From an uncultured archaeon (GTDB taxonomy: Archaea; Asgardarchaeota; Lokiarchaeia; Sigyniarchaeales; SOKP01), in the NCBI GenBank assembly GCA_964486045.1, contig CAZALK010000001.1:776242-840241 (forward strand): 64,000 nt of DNA, written 5' to 3'. A model generated the notes under the pieces. That model worked only from the letters and a program-made list of their open reading frames with translations. It was not told where the DNA came from and made no database searches. The position numbers and the translations under genes are program-made. Positions 1,125 through 21,019 of the stretch are shown here, piece after piece; position 1 is the first letter of the stretch, and every line of letters starts with the position of its first letter.

Positions 1125-2453
1125 TTAGTGATTATTTTTTGACTTTACGGGGTGATCTTCTGGAATATAAGGTTGTGCGTAGCGATTCACAATATTGAAA
1201 AAATCCTTATCACTTACTCCTTCCGTCATTTTCTTTAATTCTTCCTTAACTATAAGAAATGACTTTCTTAATTCGGCTTTAGACGTCGTCTCATGCTTTT
1301 TTTTTACTTCAATAACGATCTTTCTTATGACTTCTTCTGGGATGTCTAAATCTAATACTTTTATTTTATTTTGTAAAGCATAAGTAATTGATTTTGTTCC
1401 CGAGAATTTTCCCAAATAAAACTTTCTCTGTCTTCCAACCATATGAGGATTTATGGGTTCGTAAGTTAACGGATGAGCTAAGATGGCGGCAATATGAAGA
1501 CCACTCTCATGAAAGAAGGCATTATCTCCAACAATTGGTTTATATTGCGATATGGGTTTACCAAAATATTTCTCACATAGTTGACTTAATTCTGGCATTC
1601 TAGTCAAATCAATTCCAGTTTTAATTCCTAATCTTTCTAGAATAATAGCAACTTCATCAAGCGCAGCGTTTCCTGCTCGCTCAACATATCCATTTATACA
1701 AATGTGCGGATATTGACATCCTTCTAAAACGCCTGTTATAGTATTTGCTACAGCTAAGCCAAAATCATTATGTGTATGAATTCCCATCAGTGTTTTTCGT
1801 TTTAGAGGGTTAACTATTTCTTCTTTAATACGTTTAATTAAGTAAGAAGTAGATTGTGGAGTTAAAACTCCTACAGTATCTCCTAAAACAATTCTTTCAG
1901 CTCCATATTCAATAGCAGTGACAAAAACATTTTTTAAATGCTCAAAATCACATCGAGTTCCATCTTCAGAAACCCAATTAACTTTTAATCCATTATCCTT
2001 GGCATACTGAATTGCAATTCTAATCTGTTCTAATTGTTACTCCTCAGATTGTTGCAGCGTTTTCCGAAAGATTGCTGAAATTGGCATAAAAATTACAATT
2101 TCTTTAAGATCTGTATCAATACATGCATCAATATCATCTTGTCTTGGTCTAACGATTCCTAAAATAGTGGCCCTATTAAGATTTTCATTAACAATTGTTT
2201 TTACAATTTTCTTCTCTGAATCTGATACTGCCGGAAATCCTACTGCGATTAATTTAACTCCAATCTCATCCATTAGTTTAGCTAAATCGATCTTCTCCTC
2301 GAGTGTTAAATAAACTGTAGGACTTTGTTCCCCATCACGTAATGTTTCATCCCAAATCTCTATTTTTTTAGGTAATTCATATTTTTTAAGAGAAATTTCA
2401 TTGTAATCAACGAGGAGGTCTCGAAGTTCCTCCTTAGAGAATTTGTATGACAT
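1125..2453 (-). pseudogene. LeuA/homocitrate/citramalate synthase family (DRE-TIM metallolyase), interrupted by one in-frame TAA at 2037-2039
   Basis: Motifs DETLRDGEQ, EDGTR, LGDTVG, HTHNDFGLA, ERAGN and HESG are present. ORFs 2037-2453 and 1125-1787 share a frame, and the intervening DNA reads through as ...SEE*QLEQIRIAIQYAKDNGLKVNWVSEDGTR... Confidence 0.85.
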
Positions 2454-9944: not shown

Positions 9945-10099
9945 TGGTCCCTCCCCCCGGATTCTTGCTGGATCCGATTCAGATCCATATTTCGAGCCGG
10001 GGACCGCTCGGTTTCGGCTGACGTAACCTCATTAGCTATAAGCTTTAGTACGCGATATTATCTACAGCCGAGCACTCTAAACCACTGAGTTAGGGAGGG
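9945..10099 (-). tRNA. tRNA-Tyr(GUA) with two introns (10013-10061 at 37/38; 9962-9990 in the T-loop) and encoded CCA
   Basis: The reverse complement folds as a cloverleaf: CCCTCCC/GGGAGGG acceptor (C1-G72, A73, the archaeal Tyr identity elements), ACTC/GAGT D-stem, CTCGG/CCGAG anticodon stem with CT-GTA-G|A, CCCGG/CCGGG T-stem. It is 77 nt after removing inserts of 49 and 29 nt. Confidence 0.93.
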
Positions 10100-10396: not shown

Positions 10397-10915
10397 GTGA
10401 GAACTATCAGAGAAGAAACAGATTATACTGAAGCGATCGAGACCTATAAAAACGAGCCGTTTATTATTTTAGAACCATGGGGTAGGAGTATTGACCATTT
10501 ACGCCTAACAATCATAGGAAAAAAAGGAACTCCCTATGGAGGAGGAAAATTTGTATTTGAAATTAAATTTCCAGAAAATTATCCATTCGCACCCCCTTAC
10601 GCTTATGCTGTTACTTTAATGTGGCATCCAAATATAGACTCCTCAATTCCTCCTGGAAAGCTTAATATATGCTTGGATCTTATTAATCCGGATTTAGTTG
10701 GGAAGGTAGATGCAAGTACCGGAGCTTCAGGGTGGACTCCGAGTAAAACATTAACAAATATAATAGAAGCTTTAAAAGGTATGATGCACTATGAAGCTCC
10801 CTTCTTTAATCCAGGAGATCCACTAAACCATGAGGCTGGAGAACAGTATTTTCGAGCTTTAAAGAAGTTCGAATCTAAGGCTGCGGCATGGTGTAAGAAG
10901 TATGCAATGGACTAA
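10397..10915 (+). CDS. ubiquitin-conjugating enzyme E2
   Basis: GTPYGGGKF, FPENYPFAPP, WHPNI, ICLDL (catalytic Cys codon 10670-10672), WTPSKTL, DPLNHEAG. Confidence 0.95.
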   Translation: MRTIREETDYTEAIETYKNEPFIILEPWGRSIDHLRLTIIGKKGTPYGGGKFVFEIKFPENYPFAPPYAYAVTLMWHPNIDSSIPPGKLNICLDLINPDLVGKVDASTGASGWTPSKTLTNIIEALKGMMHYEAPFFNPGDPLNHEAGEQYFRALKKFESKAAAWCKKYAMD

Positions 10916-12947: not shown

Positions 12948-14531
12948 TCACATAAATGCTATTACAACATTATATTTTTTAATTTCTGATTCTGCTAAAG
13001 CTTTACCTAAAGGACTTAAAGTTATAATATCGTTGCTCTTTATTTTTAAGGAGGTTAGTTTGATATTGGGGTCTTTTAATGAAGGCATATAAGGATTCCA
13101 ATAAATTTCTTTAGTCATGGAGTTAGTTATCATCCATAATTCAGGATCTAACTTGTGTTCTGAAATTTCCATTGCTTTAAAAATGTAATCGACATCTGCA
13201 TCAAAAGGCACAACAATTTGAACATTTTCTTCACCTTCAATTTCCCCACAAGCAAGACAGTCATCTCTTTTTAGAATATGTAGGTGATCAAATTGGCCAT
13301 AGATCCCATTGTAATTGACATATGGAGGTTCCATGGGTGCACCAATATTTCGACCATTGACTCTGAATAGAAGTTTAAGTGCCTCTTGGGATTCAATACT
13401 AGAGATAATAGAACTAACTGTTTGGATTGCTGGTATTTTATTTCCGAGGATATTCTCCATTTCTTCAAATTTGTAATCAGGACCGAATGTTTCATTGATG
13501 TTTGCCTTCCAATCTGCAGTCTCTTTTTCAGTTAGGGATAGTCGTTCTTCTTCTGCTACATTTTCATTGAATACTCGTTCCCGTAGTTTTTCCAATTCTC
13601 CTTGGGCAATTTCTTTTAATTTAAGCACTTCATCGTTTAGATTGAGATCTGGTTTATGTCCATATTTTTTTTCGAATTCAACCTCCGCTTTTATAACACA
13701 GTGATTTCGATTGCGCGGTAGTCCTTTTAAAGTACATGCAGCAACTAATTTATCGTCAGCAGGGGGTATAGGTACTAAACACCTATAACATGGAGTTTGA
13801 TCTAAAATCTCAGGAGCGTACTTCCAGTCAAACACCATCTCAATTTCTTTCCTAAACTTTTCTATTAAAGGATTTATTTCCCTTTCCTTGATTCGTCCAA
13901 TTTCTTCTTCTAATTCATCAATTCTTCTTTGAGCTTTAAAATATTCAGGATATTCCATTTCTGTAATGTCCCATAATCTTGTTTCAACTAAATTCTTGAT
14001 TTCCCTTTCCCTATTTTTATATTCTATCTTGGAATCTTTAGGAATTACAACTTGAACATGCCCTTCAAAGCCTACAGTTCCCCCCTCTACCATTGGTTTT
14101 TTCATTCTAAGACAGATTTTGTTCAAGTCTAGTCTTGCATTAAAATTATCTAAAGCTGCAATTACCACATCTGATTCTTCATAAGCGGACATTGGTAATT
14201 TTTGAAGTTTTTCAAAATAAAAATCAATCTTTACGTATGGATTCATTTCTTTCAATCGTTCAGCTGCAACTTCTGCTTTCGGTCGTCCTTCATCTCCAGG
14301 TCTGAAGAGCATTTGCCGTGATAAATTTGAAGTCTCTATTGTGTCTAAATCGATCAAAATAAGCTTACCAATACCCATCAGTGTGAAGTCCTTAGCAATT
14401 TCGCATCCCAACGCTCCGATTCCTACAATCATAATGCAGCCATTTGAGATAACTTCTTGATCCCAACCATCGATGAGTTGTTGTCTTGCATACATTCGTG
14501 ACTTAACAATATCTTCAATCTTTTCTGTCAT
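12948..14531 (-). CDS. ubiquitin-like-protein activating enzyme E1 (ThiF adenylation domain, catalytic-Cys domain, C-terminal ubiquitin-fold domain)
   Basis: YARQ, GIGALG, DLDTIETSNLSRQMLF, ALDNFNAR, Zn pairs CYRC and CLAC, ACTLKGLPRNRNHC, KIPAIQTVSSII. Confidence 0.9.
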   Translation of the reverse strand: MTEKIEDIVKSRMYARQQLIDGWDQEVISNGCIMIVGIGALGCEIAKDFTLMGIGKLILIDLDTIETSNLSRQMLFRPGDEGRPKAEVAAERLKEMNPYVKIDFYFEKLQKLPMSAYEESDVVIAALDNFNARLDLNKICLRMKKPMVEGGTVGFEGHVQVVIPKDSKIEYKNREREIKNLVETRLWDITEMEYPEYFKAQRRIDELEEEIGRIKEREINPLIEKFRKEIEMVFDWKYAPEILDQTPCYRCLVPIPPADDKLVAACTLKGLPRNRNHCVIKAEVEFEKKYGHKPDLNLNDEVLKLKEIAQGELEKLRERVFNENVAEEERLSLTEKETADWKANINETFGPDYKFEEMENILGNKIPAIQTVSSIISSIESQEALKLLFRVNGRNIGAPMEPPYVNYNGIYGQFDHLHILKRDDCLACGEIEGEENVQIVVPFDADVDYIFKAMEISEHKLDPELWMITNSMTKEIYWNPYMPSLKDPNIKLTSLKIKSNDIITLSPLGKALAESEIKKYNVVIAFM

Positions 14532-14653: not shown

Positions 14654-17600
14654 TTATTTTTTTTTTTTTTCCCCCGCCTCTTTAATCAATCTTTTTAAGT
14701 TATTTACTTCTTCTCTCTCTTTAGACTTTTGTAATTTTTCTTTAAATCCTGCTTCATCTTCCTCTCTTTTTCCTAATTCATGAATGAGTTCTTCTTTAAT
14801 TTTTATTAACTCCCCTACTTTTATACGAAAATCCTTAGATTCCTCTAAAATCTTTATTTTTTCTTGTTCTTCAATTAATTTTTTATTTAATCTCCTTTCT
14901 TCAATCAGTCTAGTTATTTCATCAGCAGATTGACGAACCTCACCAATAGTTCCTTTTAACTTTAGTTCTTCAGTTTTAATTCTATCTTCTTCTCTTTTTC
15001 TTTGTCGTTCTAATTGTTCTTGAATCTCATTGATCCTAATTTCTTCAGCTTTAACTCTTTCTTCCATTACTTTCATATTTTTAATCTCTGTTTCTATGTA
15101 TTTTATTTCTTCATGCCAGCCTATTTCTTCAAATTTTAGTATAGCTTGATCATAATTATCGTTGGCTTTTTTAAAATCATGATACGCTGCTTTTTTTTTT
15201 CCTTCATCAATTAATCTTAAACCTTCATCTTTTGTTTGATCTGAACGTCGCTTAGTTAACAGTAATGCTCTATATTGCCTTTCCTGCTCTCGTTTTAACT
15301 TTTCTTGTTCCAATCTTCTTAATCTGACTTCTTCCTGAAATATCTCATATTCCTTTTGTCTTTCTATTTGCGCAACTTCCTCTAATTGTTTCTTTTCATA
15401 ATAATTAGTTTGTTCTTGTTGTAAATCTCTTATTAGTGCATTCAAATTATTAATCTCGGGTTCCCATCCAATATTTTCTTCTAAAATATTCCTAGCTAGA
15501 ATATATAATGAAATTGCTTTGTCATAGTCAGGGATAGATTGTTTTAAATATTTTCCTGCTTCTTCTAAGAAGGAATAAGCTGATTCTCTTATATTCATTT
15601 GTTTCTGAATAACTTTTTCTCTTTCTTGAACAACTAACAGATGAGCTTTTTTCTTTTCCCTTTCTAGTCTTTGTCTTTCTTCAATTAATAACTGTAAGTC
15701 CTTTTCTTCTTGTATCTTTTCTAATTCTCTCTGAAATTTTAATTCTTCAGTCTTTTCTTTTTCCTTCATAATTAGTTTAACTTTAGTCACCATAGTATTA
15801 ATCGAATCGGTAGGAAAATTGATTTCATTTAAAATAAGCTCTGCCTTTCTATACATTTCGATTGCATGTTGATATTGGGTTTGTTTAAGATGAGATTCCG
15901 CTTTATTTAAAATTTTAAACGCTTGTTGTTTTCTCTCTTCCATCATTGACTTTCTTCGATCACTTTCTTCTAATTGTATTTTTTTTGCTAGTAATCGTTC
16001 TCTTTCAACCTTTGCTATTTCGGTAACCTTTTGCTGTAATTTCCATTCATCTTTATCCTTCTGTAGATAAAATTCAAAGGTTTTTTGTTTTTGCAGTTGA
16101 GATTCATTTTTTCTTTCTAGAACCTTTTGAATCATTTCTCTAATACCCTCAGTTGGGAATCTAATCTCGTTAAGGATTATTTCTGCTGAATAATAATATT
16201 TTAAAGCTTTATCATATTGAGCTTGATTCAAGTAATTTTCAGCAACTTCAAGAAAGTTAAAAGCCTCATTTCTTCTTTTTTCGTTATACTGATGTCTTTC
16301 CCTCTGCTTTTCGTATTCAATTTGTTTAGTTTTTGTCTTTAACTCACTAATTTTTATACCTTCCCGGATTTTTTGCTGGAACTCTCCTTCTTCGCGTTTT
16401 TTTTGAAGTAAAATCTCCAAGTGCTTTTGCTTTCTTAATTTATTTTCTCTATTTCTATCATGAACCTTGTAAATCATTTCTTTAACTGCTCCTGAAGGGA
16501 ATCCTATTTCACTTAAAAATAATTCTGCTTGGCGATATTTATCAATTGCCTCTTCATATTGACCTTTAATTAAATCCTTTTCAGCATCGTCCATTAAACT
16601 AAATGCCTTTGTTTTTTGGTGTTCTAACAAATTTGACAAATCTTCACGTTTTAGAATTTCAATTTGTTGTTTTCGTAATCTTTCTTTTTCTCTTTGAATA
16701 TTACGATTGATACTTGCTTGGAATTTCTCCTCTTCCTTTTGCTGCTCACTTAATAAGTGTTGTTCCCTTTCTTTCTTCTTTTCTATCTCTCTTTTTCGAT
16801 CATTAATAATATCTATAGTTTCATAGAATAATTTCAAATATTCTCCAGTCCACCCAATTTCTGTTAATATTACTATAGAATTATTGTATTTTGTCAAAGC
16901 GTTATCAAAATTATTATCTTTAAGCAATCTATCTCCATCTTCAATTAGTTTAAATGCTTCCTCTTGTTTAATTAAATTTTGGGTTGAAGTAAGTTTTTTT
17001 CTTTCTCTAAATTGTACCTCCTTTATTGCTATTTCTTTTTCTCGTTGTTGTTGTTGATCTATTTTTTCTAAGAAATCAAATCGAGCTTTATCATCTTCTA
17101 TTGCCTTTTCTAACGATCTCTGTTTCAATAAATCGTTTTCCCTTTTCTTGCTTTGAATACCTAGAATTGTTTCCTGAATGATAGGGATTTCATCAATCCA
17201 TTGGATTTGAGCAAAAATATTTGTTACCTCAAAATAAATTTCCAACGCCTTATCATAATTCGTCTGTGAGAGAAAAATTTGAGCATCATCTAATAATTTA
17301 AAGGCATATTCTTTTTGTTTCTCACGATAAGCAAGTTCTTTCTCTCGGTTCCTTAGAACAATTTGTTTATGCTTTAAATCTTCTTGCTGGATCCTTATCT
17401 CTTTTGAAATTTGTTCCTGAAAAGATTTTTCCAACTTTTCTTGTTCTAAAACTTCACTTAAATCTCTCTGCTTTTTTAATTCTGCCTTCCGCTTCCTTTC
17501 TTCAATTACATTTATGGCGTTTTCGATTAACTTTATTTCATCACCCCATTCAATTTCTTCAAAAAGTACTGTGGCATTTTGATATAGCTTTAGTACCTCG

Positions 17601-20600
17601 TTAAAATTACCTTTTTCCAAATGAGATTGTGCTATTTCTAATATGTTGAAGGCTTTCTCTTTCTTCTGTTCAGTTATTAGTCTAATGTCTTCCTGTTTTT
17701 TCAGTTTTTCCTGCTTTTCAATCATTTTTTGCTGTTCTATTCTAACTTTTTCAACAATTTGTTGTTGAAATATCAACTCCTCCTGTTCCTTCCTAGTCTC
17801 TAGCTCCAATTGCGTTATAATGTTTAACTCCTCGGTTCTCCTTTTTTCCTGAATTTTCTGAATCATTCCTTGTATAATTTCAGCTGGAAAACCAATTTCA
17901 TTTAGCAACAATTCAGCCTGTCGATATTTTTTTATTGATTGGTCATATTTACCTTGGTTCAATAAATTTTCTGCATTGGTCATAATTCCAAATGCTTCTG
18001 ATTTACGAGTTTCAATGCTTGATAATGTTATCTCGCGTTTTTGTAGTAGAATTTCTTTAGATTTAATTTTTTCTTGTTCTTTTTTCAAATAATCGGCTAT
18101 TTTTGCTTGAAATTGCTCTTCTTCTTTCTGATGATTCAAAGCTAATTTAAATTCAGTTTGGTGTGCTTTTTCTTTTTCTGACTTCCTCTCTTGTATAGTG
18201 CCAATCGTATCATTTAAGATTTTTAAGTAGTGTGTTCCCCACCCAATTTTATTTAATAATTCTATGGCTTCACGATAATTTTTTAAGGCTTCATCATAGT
18301 TTTCTTCGATAAGTAACGCTTCTCCTGCTTCAATCAGTTTAAACGCTTCTTGTTCTTGAGTTAAATTCTGATCAGATATAAATTTCTCCCGTTCCAGGAA
18401 TTTAAACTCCTTTATAGCATCCATCCTTTCTCTTTCTCTATGATATTTAACTTGCTCTACAAAAGCCCTTTCCTTAACCTCCTTCTTAATAGCTTTTCGT
18501 AACTGCTTTTGTTTATATAATATTCTTTCTTTCTTTTTCTTCTCAATATCTTGTATTGCTTGTGTTAATAATGGAATCTCATCTACCCATTGAATTTGGG
18601 TAAATATGCTTATTACTTTATGATAATTTTCAAGAACTTCATCGTAATTTCCTTGCGAAACTAATATTTGAGCATTTTCTAACAAATTAAACGTTTCTTT
18701 TTTTCTTTCTTCACGATAAGCAAGTTCTTTTTCTCTTTCTCTATGTATAATCTCTTTTTGTTTTAATTTATCTTGGTGTGATTTTAACTCTTTTGTTAGC
18801 TGTTCTTGAAAATTTTTTTCTTGCTTATCTCTTTCTAAGTCTGCTTGTATTTTGATCTGCTCCTGTAATGCTGCTTCTCGTTTTTTATTTTCAATTTCTA
18901 TTATTGAATTTTGAATTAAGCTAATTTCATCTTTCCATTGAGCATCAGCAAAGAAGTTAATAGAGTATTGCAATATTTCGATAGATTCGTCATATTTTCC
19001 TTTAGATGCTTCTTCTTTTGCTTGTTCAAGTAACTTAAATCCTGCTTTCCTTCTTTCTTCTTGATATTCTAAATCTTCTGCTCGTTCTTTTAATTCAATC
19101 TCTTTTTTCTTTATTTTTTCACGTTCTTGTTGTAAATTTTTAATAATTTGCATTTGAAAAGCGTCTTCTTCCCTCTGTCTTTCAATGGCTTCCTGCACCT
19201 GTTTTTGTTCTATTAATTTTTGATTTTTTCGTAACTCTTCAACTTCTAAAATTGAATTTTCAATTACTGCTATTTCATCTTTCCACTGAATTTCTGCAAA
19301 AATATTTCCTGCATTTTGATATGCTATAATTGTATTTTCATATTCTCCCTTTTTTATGAAATTGAGAGCAGAATCTAAATATTCGAATGCAACCTTTTTT
19401 CTCTGCTGAAAATAAATCAATTCTTTTTCTTTATCCTTTAATATAATCTCTTTTTGTTTTATACGCTTACGTTCCTTGTTTAACTGATTAACAATCTGAA
19501 TTTGAAATTCTAATTCTGATTTTTCTCGCTCCTCTAATTTCTGCTGAACTTCATATTGTTTCTTAAATTGTGAATTTTTAATTTTTTTGACATTTGAAAT
19601 CGTGTTATTGATTGTAGAAATATATGTTTCCCATCCAGGTCCTAAGTTTTCAATTAGATTTAGAGCTTCATTGTATTCACTAATGGCATCGTCATAATGT
19701 TTTGCTCGTAAGATGGTATCAGCATTACTTAAAATATTAAATAGTTCTTTCTCCTTCTTAGCTTCTCCAATTCTTTTTTCTTCATGCAGACTTCTTCTCG
19801 AATCTAGTTCCTTAGCTGATTCTAATATTTGCTCTTGTTGTTTTCTAGATATAGATTTCTGAAGATTTTTTAAATCTCTTTCCCTCCTTTGTCTCAACAA
19901 TACTGCATTCTTTTCTCGATCCTTCTTCTTTGTTATGTCTTCTATTAAATTAATAATTGGATGGATATATGAATCCCAATCTATGGATTTAAATAATTCA
20001 ATGGCGTTCTCAAATTTTTGAATAGCTTGATCATAATTTTTCTCCATTTCGAGTCGTTTACCAATATCTATGAGATTAAATGCATCATTTTGAATAGCTT
20101 CCTCTTTTTTCTTTTTTTCTTCAAATTTAATTAACCTTTCTTTCCCTAACTCCGATTCGGATTGTTTAGTTTTCTCCACAATAATTTTTCCTTCTATTTC
20201 GGTAACTGCTTGTTTCTGCTGAGATTGGAATTTTTCAAATTGATCTTTGTCTTTTTTAAGCTTTTCAATAATAACATTTATTTTTTTAGTTTGTTCATTC
20301 CAACCAATCGAATTCAACAATTCTATAGCTCTTTCATAATTCATTATCGCTTGATCATATTTTCTTTCTTTTTCAAAGATTTTTGCTTTATCAATATGAG
20401 CAAATGCATGGTCTTGTTTTTCTTCTTCTTGTTTTTTCCTTGATCTATATCGAGCTATAGATTCCGCTTTATCAACGCTTGTTTTTTGCCCGAACATATC
20501 CACAATTTCAATGTTTTTATCCTCTAATCCCTTTAGATATTCCTCAGATTGACTCAAGTCTTGAGGTTGTTTCAATTTCGTTAGTTGTTCTCTTTTTGAA

Positions 20601-21019
20601 ACCTCACTAAGATTTTTAATTTTTAATATAACATTTTCTAATTGACCCTCGGACCAACCAGATTGAGATAATAAATTAATAGCAGATAAATATTGCTTAA
20701 TAGATTCTTCAAAAAAACCATCAGATTCTAATTTTTTAGCACCTTCTAATAAAGCGAATGCTTGGTCTTGTAATTGCTCTGCTTGAGCTCTTATCTGAGT
20801 CTGTTGGTATATTTTCTCTTGTTTCAAAGAATTTTTTAGTTCATCTATTCTGTCATAGATATCATTAACTCTATGCATTAAATATCCGCTTTGCTTTAGG
20901 AACTCTACAGCATTTTCATAGTTTGATATTGCTTGTTTTGGATTTTTCTCTTCTTCAAATTTTTGAGCAAGTTCTAAAAATTTAATAGCTTCTTTAGCTA
21001 ACTCTTCTGGATTTTGCAT
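14654..21019 (-). CDS. giant helical repeat protein (18 MIT/TPR-like units separated by E/K/Q/R-rich coiled-coil segments)
   Basis: 2121-aa ORF. The unit AF.LL..A......G.Y..AI..Y..A...L..I[GQ][WF] can be counted 18 times at roughly 116-aa spacing. No TM segment or signal peptide is visible. Confidence 0.85.
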   Translation of the reverse strand: MQNPEELAKEAIKFLELAQKFEEEKNPKQAISNYENAVEFLKQSGYLMHRVNDIYDRIDELKNSLKQEKIYQQTQIRAQAEQLQDQAFALLEGAKKLESDGFFEESIKQYLSAINLLSQSGWSEGQLENVILKIKNLSEVSKREQLTKLKQPQDLSQSEEYLKGLEDKNIEIVDMFGQKTSVDKAESIARYRSRKKQEEEKQDHAFAHIDKAKIFEKERKYDQAIMNYERAIELLNSIGWNEQTKKINVIIEKLKKDKDQFEKFQSQQKQAVTEIEGKIIVEKTKQSESELGKERLIKFEEKKKKEEAIQNDAFNLIDIGKRLEMEKNYDQAIQKFENAIELFKSIDWDSYIHPIINLIEDITKKKDREKNAVLLRQRRERDLKNLQKSISRKQQEQILESAKELDSRRSLHEEKRIGEAKKEKELFNILSNADTILRAKHYDDAISEYNEALNLIENLGPGWETYISTINNTISNVKKIKNSQFKKQYEVQQKLEEREKSELEFQIQIVNQLNKERKRIKQKEIILKDKEKELIYFQQRKKVAFEYLDSALNFIKKGEYENTIIAYQNAGNIFAEIQWKDEIAVIENSILEVEELRKNQKLIEQKQVQEAIERQREEDAFQMQIIKNLQQEREKIKKKEIELKERAEDLEYQEERRKAGFKLLEQAKEEASKGKYDESIEILQYSINFFADAQWKDEISLIQNSIIEIENKKREAALQEQIKIQADLERDKQEKNFQEQLTKELKSHQDKLKQKEIIHREREKELAYREERKKETFNLLENAQILVSQGNYDEVLENYHKVISIFTQIQWVDEIPLLTQAIQDIEKKKKERILYKQKQLRKAIKKEVKERAFVEQVKYHRERERMDAIKEFKFLEREKFISDQNLTQEQEAFKLIEAGEALLIEENYDEALKNYREAIELLNKIGWGTHYLKILNDTIGTIQERKSEKEKAHQTEFKLALNHQKEEEQFQAKIADYLKKEQEKIKSKEILLQKREITLSSIETRKSEAFGIMTNAENLLNQGKYDQSIKKYRQAELLLNEIGFPAEIIQGMIQKIQEKRRTEELNIITQLELETRKEQEELIFQQQIVEKVRIEQQKMIEKQEKLKKQEDIRLITEQKKEKAFNILEIAQSHLEKGNFNEVLKLYQNATVLFEEIEWGDEIKLIENAINVIEERKRKAELKKQRDLSEVLEQEKLEKSFQEQISKEIRIQQEDLKHKQIVLRNREKELAYREKQKEYAFKLLDDAQIFLSQTNYDKALEIYFEVTNIFAQIQWIDEIPIIQETILGIQSKKRENDLLKQRSLEKAIEDDKARFDFLEKIDQQQQREKEIAIKEVQFRERKKLTSTQNLIKQEEAFKLIEDGDRLLKDNNFDNALTKYNNSIVILTEIGWTGEYLKLFYETIDIINDRKREIEKKKEREQHLLSEQQKEEEKFQASINRNIQREKERLRKQQIEILKREDLSNLLEHQKTKAFSLMDDAEKDLIKGQYEEAIDKYRQAELFLSEIGFPSGAVKEMIYKVHDRNRENKLRKQKHLEILLQKKREEGEFQQKIREGIKISELKTKTKQIEYEKQRERHQYNEKRRNEAFNFLEVAENYLNQAQYDKALKYYYSAEIILNEIRFPTEGIREMIQKVLERKNESQLQKQKTFEFYLQKDKDEWKLQQKVTEIAKVERERLLAKKIQLEESDRRKSMMEERKQQAFKILNKAESHLKQTQYQHAIEMYRKAELILNEINFPTDSINTMVTKVKLIMKEKEKTEELKFQRELEKIQEEKDLQLLIEERQRLEREKKKAHLLVVQEREKVIQKQMNIRESAYSFLEEAGKYLKQSIPDYDKAISLYILARNILEENIGWEPEINNLNALIRDLQQEQTNYYEKKQLEEVAQIERQKEYEIFQEEVRLRRLEQEKLKREQERQYRALLLTKRRSDQTKDEGLRLIDEGKKKAAYHDFKKANDNYDQAILKFEEIGWHEEIKYIETEIKNMKVMEERVKAEEIRINEIQEQLERQRKREEDRIKTEELKLKGTIGEVRQSADEITRLIEERRLNKKLIEEQEKIKILEESKDFRIKVGELIKIKEELIHELGKREEDEAGFKEKLQKSKEREEVNNLKRLIKEAGEKKKK

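Follow-up and report, generated by a model that had tools for sequence, protein, structure and literature searches.

The E1 gene and its surroundings

The window, i.e., the whole 64,000-nucleotide stretch of lokiarchaeial DNA analyzed here, encodes on its minus strand an E1-like protein of 527 amino acids (P0001, 12948–14531), for which ThiF was the sole match in Pfam (E 1.8e-58) and 571 relatives were retrieved in a homolog search, the names of which assign the genome to Promethearchaeota/Lokiarchaeia. The N-terminal part of its adenylation domain (residues 1–164, 14040–14531) has the complete set of an active domain (GxGxxG, D, NxxRQ, K and D-R), represented by GxGxxG at residues 37–42, D61, D63, N69, R72, K85, D128 and R133, and in addition features the arginine finger, Arg16 (14484–14486), which in enzymes of MoeB, UBA1 and BilD type acts in trans, and Gln160 at the position gating Ubl residue 72. 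Downstream of a helical insert described below, the crossover loop starts with a first zinc CxxC motif (CYRC, residues 248–251, 13779–13790) and leads to Cys266 (codon 13734–13736), the predicted thioester-forming cysteine, and a helical catalytic-cysteine domain (residues 267–362, 13446–13733). The re-entry loop, with its motif at residue 365, and the C-terminal part of the adenylation domain including the second zinc CxxC (CLAC, residues 425–428, 13248–13259) occupy 13245–13445, and a predicted E2-recruiting ubiquitin-fold domain (UFD, residues 430–527, 12951–13244) with its motif at residue 489 completes the chain, all on the minus strand. A separate cysteine domain is thus inserted into the adenylation domain by crossover and re-entry loops.

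An earlier sequence-only reading had quoted these motifs without stating the strand, and all of them are present in the order given there. All adenylation, zinc and thioester residues, including those of the N-terminal part, are invariant among 108 full-length homologs, and Arg16 is kept in 108 of 108. In the IPA[IV] signature that had been cited for eukaryotic E1s, the proline is replaced by alanine in 104 of the 108 sequences. Only two of the 13,666 open reading frames of the genome, those for P0001 and a paralogous E1, match the combined pattern CxxC..CTxxxxPxxxxHC, which was absent from all 20,000 shuffled sequences. P0001 is a real, conserved, canonical-type archaeal E1.

Neither the E1 gene nor the E2 gene of the window contains an intron. 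In four genomes of one genus (G019, G030, G117, G159; L047:6520-6550, L048, L049, L050), on the other hand, the loop encoding GxGxxG of the E1 is interrupted by a stop-containing insert of 30 nt, which has the form of a bulge-helix-bulge intron, its stem showing compensatory changes; when both bulges are cut behind their second base, the motif is recovered. Similar putative intron-like inserts of 27–32 nt reside in E2 and Ubl orthologs belonging to the same pathway as the E1 (L061:3821-3853 for the E2 of G008, L096:485-520 for the Ubl of G030 and L118:6180-6220 for the Ubl of G349), where their removal would restore the conserved frame. Directly upstream of the E1 gene and in the same orientation, a 2121-residue MIT/TPR-like repeat protein is encoded (14654–21019, minus strand), which is conserved at this place across the family albeit with variable length. 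Elsewhere in the window, a probable gene for tRNA-Tyr(GTA), which encodes the CCA end and is interrupted at least twice, was recognized by eye at 9945–10099 (minus strand), divergent from the E2 gene, where both ARAGORN and Rfam had missed it. An isopropylmalate/homocitrate-synthase-like gene (1125–2453, minus strand) is broken at about 2037–2039 by one in-frame TAA; an intron was considered for this break and rejected.

Predicted structure and relation to known E1 enzymes

In the AlphaFold model of P0001 (mean pLDDT 82), the core is MoeB-like, the part following Cys266 forms a helical domain and the tail adopts a beta-grasp fold, while the catalytic loop (residues 254–268) is of low confidence with pLDDT below 50. 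Residues 279–362 are modeled as all-helical, in agreement with the helical domain of about 90 residues that had been predicted to follow the cysteine; this domain is about 30 residues longer than in Helarchaeal orthologs. When the whole model was submitted to Foldseek, Uba3 was the top match (2nvu_B, E 6.5e-25), and structure comparison aligned the entire chain along Uba3 and Uba2.

Pfam holds no family for the tail, the cysteine domain or the helical insert, and a profile comparison of the tail with a fungal Uba2 segment found nothing, such that the assignment of the tail as a UFD rests on structure. Folded alone, the 98-residue tail reached a pLDDT of 94 and a pTM of 0.85. In a comparison with 48,161 chains, ranks 1–7 were taken by UFDs of Uba2, Uba3 and plant E1 (Z 8.2–10.2), above ubiquitin, and superposition on 5fq2_B gave an rmsd of 2.1 over 85 residues. 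The beta-grasp fold, the absence of which had been named as grounds for discarding the canonical E1 reading, is thereby borne out in silico.

The Helarchaeal ortholog P0124, which lacks the insert, can be aligned over its full length to human Uba3 (residues 26–395, E 1e-42) and thereby ties Cys266 to the known catalytic cysteines, i.e., those of Uba3 and Uba6. Residues 203–283 of P0124, its small cysteine domain, also align without gaps, though weakly (E 3.3), to the four-helix region of the inactive domain of UBA6, hinting that this UBA6 region may be a decayed cysteine domain.

Taken together, structure and alignment uphold a Uba3/Uba2-type architecture rather than that of a simple ThiF/MoeB protein. 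As a surprise, this does not stand, for the Caldiarchaeum E1 has already been modeled on Uba3 and C-terminal ubiquitin-like domains have been listed for Heimdall and Loki E1s (Hennell James 2017, PMC5654768), and E1-E2 transfer was shown in the same work with the reconstituted cascade of Caldiarchaeum subterraneum (Csub_C1476). [quoted passage not shown] With human UBA3 and UBA2/SAE2 it has in common the domain order, the zinc CxxC pairs, the catalytic and re-entry motifs and the UFD fold.

Databases name such proteins differently, and the sole Pfam match, the source annotation as 'ThiF family' and the fact that MoeB gives the best superposition of the core (Z 31.3, rmsd 1.9 over 235 residues) would all fit a MoeB/ThiF/UbaA-type activator of sulfur carriers or SAMPs. 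Homodimers of this type resemble P0001 in adenylation core and in carrying their own arginine finger. They are, however, proteins of about 250 residues without separate cysteine domain, UFD or E2, quite unlike P0001; the genome contains a plain MoeB-like gene on contig C2 beside sulfur-relay genes, and the neighbors of P0001 relatives are genes for Ubl, E2, JAB and RING proteins. We consider a function in sulfur transfer hardly credible.

A lineage-specific insert

The sequence-only reading had made no mention of a charged helical insert of 81 residues (165–245, 13797–14039, minus strand), which lies between an adenylation strand and CYRC and is helical in the whole-chain model. It is present in 114 of 134, one of one and 12 of 14 genomes of three families belonging to the order of the window and in none of 11 genomes from four other families of the same class; it is a later, derived addition. 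An atlas search with the insert gave scores of up to 0.81 only, i.e., at chance level. By analogy with the FCCH and coiled-coil elements of eukaryotic E1s, it might, speculatively, form a wall of the cleft for Ubl and E2. Within the Asgard sample, the P0001 clade as such occurs in a single class. Other Asgard classes contain E1s of 330–450 residues with the same general design, as does the genome under study in the form of a paralog encoded on contig C5, and the architecture therefore is the Asgard norm.

Probable partner proteins and a likely second conjugation pathway

The genome (99% complete) encodes five ThiF-family proteins, and comprises three E1-E2 sets and several Ubls. Besides P0001 and the MoeB-like gene, these include an operonic Ubl-E1-E2-JAB set at G000:C5:172904-175999, the E1 of which has 410 residues and the architecture of P0001, and a 297-residue ThiF-family protein (G000:C1:277660-278553), the N-terminus of which we take to be UBA5-like.

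In the window, the probable cognate E2 of P0001 (172 residues, 10397–10915, plus strand) features HPN at residues 77–79 and a loop insert after Cys92 (10670–10672). Its gene is convergent with that for the E1 and two unrelated genes lie in between; E1 and E2 are not co-transcribed. The start of the E2 gene at 10397 is irregular, many orthologs being without in-frame ATG, GTG or TTG and apparently beginning at ATT, ATC or TTG after a GGTGA-like motif; orthologs that look short were suspected to be truncated and mostly turned out to have odd start codons instead. A Ubl of 83 residues that ends in Gly-Gly and scores above the Pfam ubiquitin cut-off is encoded on contig C10 (G000:C10:126194-126445) and is 92–96% identical across most of the family. 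Large proteins in three genomes (G000:C13:8740-10611, G138 and G186) carry a domain 40–50% identical to this C10 Ubl, which in the first of them is bounded by a Gly-Ala-Gly junction.

Only the E2 is located near the E1 at our locus, and fuller clusters with genes of Ub, E2, RING and JAB type occur in relatives. Locus L085 is a Ubl-E1-E2-JAB operon, of which the Ubl best matches the C10 Ubl (47% identity, E 1e-19) and the E2 best matches the E2 of the window (1.6e-43 vs. 7e-27 for the other E2). In G255, genes for an E3-like UBC/RWD-RING protein, E1, E2 and JAB stand in a row; in a Helarchaeon, E1 and E2 genes are 8 kb apart with unrelated genes around them; and the gene for this Ubl adjoins the E1 gene of a tandem type described below in L062, G347 and G349 of family f30. 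Among 251 Asgard genomes, the Ubl was found in 50 of 60 genomes of the class and the E2 in 53 of 60, both in none of 190 outside it, counts which were taken among kin that share genes, such that the matching ranges overstate independence. Within the family of the window, an E2 ortholog resides within a few kb of the E1 gene in 12 of 15 loci, a proximity of little weight as the whole neighborhood is syntenic, and in family f2 the two genes are unlinked in five of five loci. Complex prediction for the E1 with the E2 of the window returned a score of 0.00 and speaks neither for nor against the pairing.

The common phyletic range and the neighbors in four unrelated contexts lead us to regard Ubl, E1 and E2 as a second, dispersed pathway of the Lokiarchaeia. 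The pairing of P0001 with the E2 at 10397–10915, as put forward earlier, thus gains support from gene linkage in L085, G255 and the Helarchaeon and from phyletic range, and linkage and co-occurrence make the C10 Ubl the probable cognate tag. The UBC/RWD-RING protein G000:C1:892641 is a candidate E3 and the JAB protease G000:C10:184111 a candidate isopeptidase. Overall, we think it likely that P0001 is the E1 of a dedicated Ubl conjugation pathway, the second in Lokiarchaeia, operating with the C10 Ubl and the E2 of the window.

With two further E1-E2-Ubl sets in the genome, cross-talk is possible. If P0001 and its operonic C5 paralog shared Ubls and E2s, no dedicated pathway would exist, and the multiplicity of E1-E2 sets and Ubls in one genome, together with the relatedness of the two long E1s as paralogs, would be in line with this. 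Yet, each E1 clade retains its own Ubl and E2 neighbors across orders, the Ubl from the C5 operon ends in Ala-Gly rather than Gly-Gly, and the gate residue is Tyr in the C5 E1 vs. Gln160 in P0001. Sharing therefore appears unlikely, and we adhere to a dedicated pathway.

Oligomeric state and tandem relatives

In UBA1 and UBA6 as well as in bacterial BilD, an inactive and an active adenylation domain are arranged in tandem, and in UBA1 and BilD the arginine completing the ATP site is supplied by the inactive domain (PMC12355090, PMC10557695). Human UBA3 and UBA2 need the inactive APPBP1 and SAE1, respectively, for this arginine finger, whereas in P0001 a single chain holds both elements: Arg16 and the active site are jointly invariant in the 108 homologs. 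P0001 is not a tandem protein, it has no inactive adenylation domain fused to it, and none of the five ThiF genes in the 99% complete genome encodes an inactive paralog.

A fused inactive domain is confined to relatives. A search with an 800-residue relative yielded 21 clusters of tandem inactive-plus-active E1s (P0123, P0360-P0379; L062, L105-L108) from sources named Sigynarchaeota or Lokiarchaeia, which are 730–880 residues long and possess a UFD; in the sister family f30, they were present in four of four genomes. The dead half has kept Arg16 in 21 of 21 cases, carries D128N in 21 of 21 and is without all cysteines, while the live half retains every catalytic residue and is missing Arg16 in all 21. 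The tandem orthologs of family f30 thus match UBA1, UBA6 and BilD in layout and division of labor but, unlike BilD, keep a UFD. The dead half best matches the P0001 clade (135 bits vs. 57 for the inactive domain of Uba1). Grouping of the live half with the active domain of Uba1 was rejected (AU p 0.015), that of the dead half with the inactive domain of Uba1 was not (AU p 0.445), the dead half alone being without firm placement. Best match of the dead half and failure of the live half to group with Uba1 make convergence on the UBA1 layout likely, i.e., the tandem form would stem from a separate duplication inside the P0001 clade.

Such complementary decay is the expected fate of a duplicated homodimer and supports a homodimeric state for P0001. 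The earlier proposal of a single-chain, probably homodimeric enzyme is retained as probable, as judged from the joint presence of Arg16 and active site, the lack of an inactive paralog and the tandem pattern. As canonical E1s are pseudo-dimers, a heterodimer with an inactive subunit after the model of Uba3-APPBP1 or Uba2-Aos1 could be envisaged for P0001. With no gene for such a subunit found in the 99% complete genome and Arg16 invariant in the P0001 chain, we rate this as very improbable and favor the homodimer.

Phylogeny

In an LG+G4 tree, P0001 nested among Asgard E1s (99/96.6), distinct from the ThiF/MoeB class, with Uba1 and Uba2 outside; as in all our trees, Uba2 was represented by a single sequence and Uba3 and APPBP1/Aos1 were absent. 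Under a mixture model, deep nodes dissolved, especially when the long branches of inactive domains were included, and P0170, another operonic archaeal E1, became the maximum likelihood sister of Uba1 plus Uba2 (98/94).

According to the sequence-only reading, P0001 stands near the ancestor of canonical E1s. In favor of its clade as the closest living relative of the Uba1/Uba2/Uba3 ancestor, P0124 matches Uba3 with 150 bits, above the 138 and 136 bits of two other archaeal E1s, and sisterhood with Uba1 plus Uba2 was not rejected (AU p 0.18, 0.34 and 0.094). Maximum likelihood trees, on the other hand, never joined the two clades, P0170 takes the sister position, the P0001 clade is restricted to one class and the insert is derived; orthology to UBA3 or UBA2 has no tree support. 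The ancestral position proposed earlier is thus not supported by the trees, while sisterhood is not rejected in the topology tests (AU p 0.09–0.34). P0001 is a derived, lineage-specific paralog; it is unlikely that this insert-bearing E1 is closer to the canonical ancestor than other Asgard E1s, and we see little prospect even for its clade as a whole to be the closest relative.

Proposed mechanism and implications

Based on these findings, two copies of the E1 would dimerize via their adenylation domains in a MoeB-like manner, each lending Arg16 to the ATP site of the other. Linkage and co-occurrence suggest that the enzyme adenylates the C-terminal Gly-Gly of the C10 Ubl, and homology that Cys266 takes over the Ubl as a thioester. 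The C-terminal UFD, a fold predicted in silico, would bind the E2 of the window, and the Ubl would then pass to Cys92 of the E2. Substrate ligation by the UBC/RWD-RING protein as E3 and removal by the JAB protease as isopeptidase are candidate steps.

While the headline architecture is already known, the likely partner Ubl and E2, the helical insert and the tandem relatives are new here; the literature searched, with few subscription papers among it, held no description of the insert, the C10 Ubl or a tandem Asgard form. More tentatively, and with less confidence than for the dedicated pathway itself, we suggest that this pathway is a second, orthogonal one whose E1 forms may represent living stages toward asymmetry: in the outer orders the enzyme would be a plain homodimer, in three families a homodimer extended by an FCCH-like helical insert, and in a fourth an independently fused inactive-plus-active protein with UFD that resembles UBA1.

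If true, archaea would already have split ubiquitin-like signaling into parallel dedicated pathways, comparable to those of ubiquitin, NEDD8 and SUMO in eukaryotes. The cascade, nameable from Ubl, E1 and E2 to the candidate E3 and JAB, would stand apart from the operonic Loki system and be open to in vitro tests, and the three forms of one ortholog would offer a direct comparison for the step from homodimer to pseudodimer, which is usually only inferred for eukaryotic E1s.
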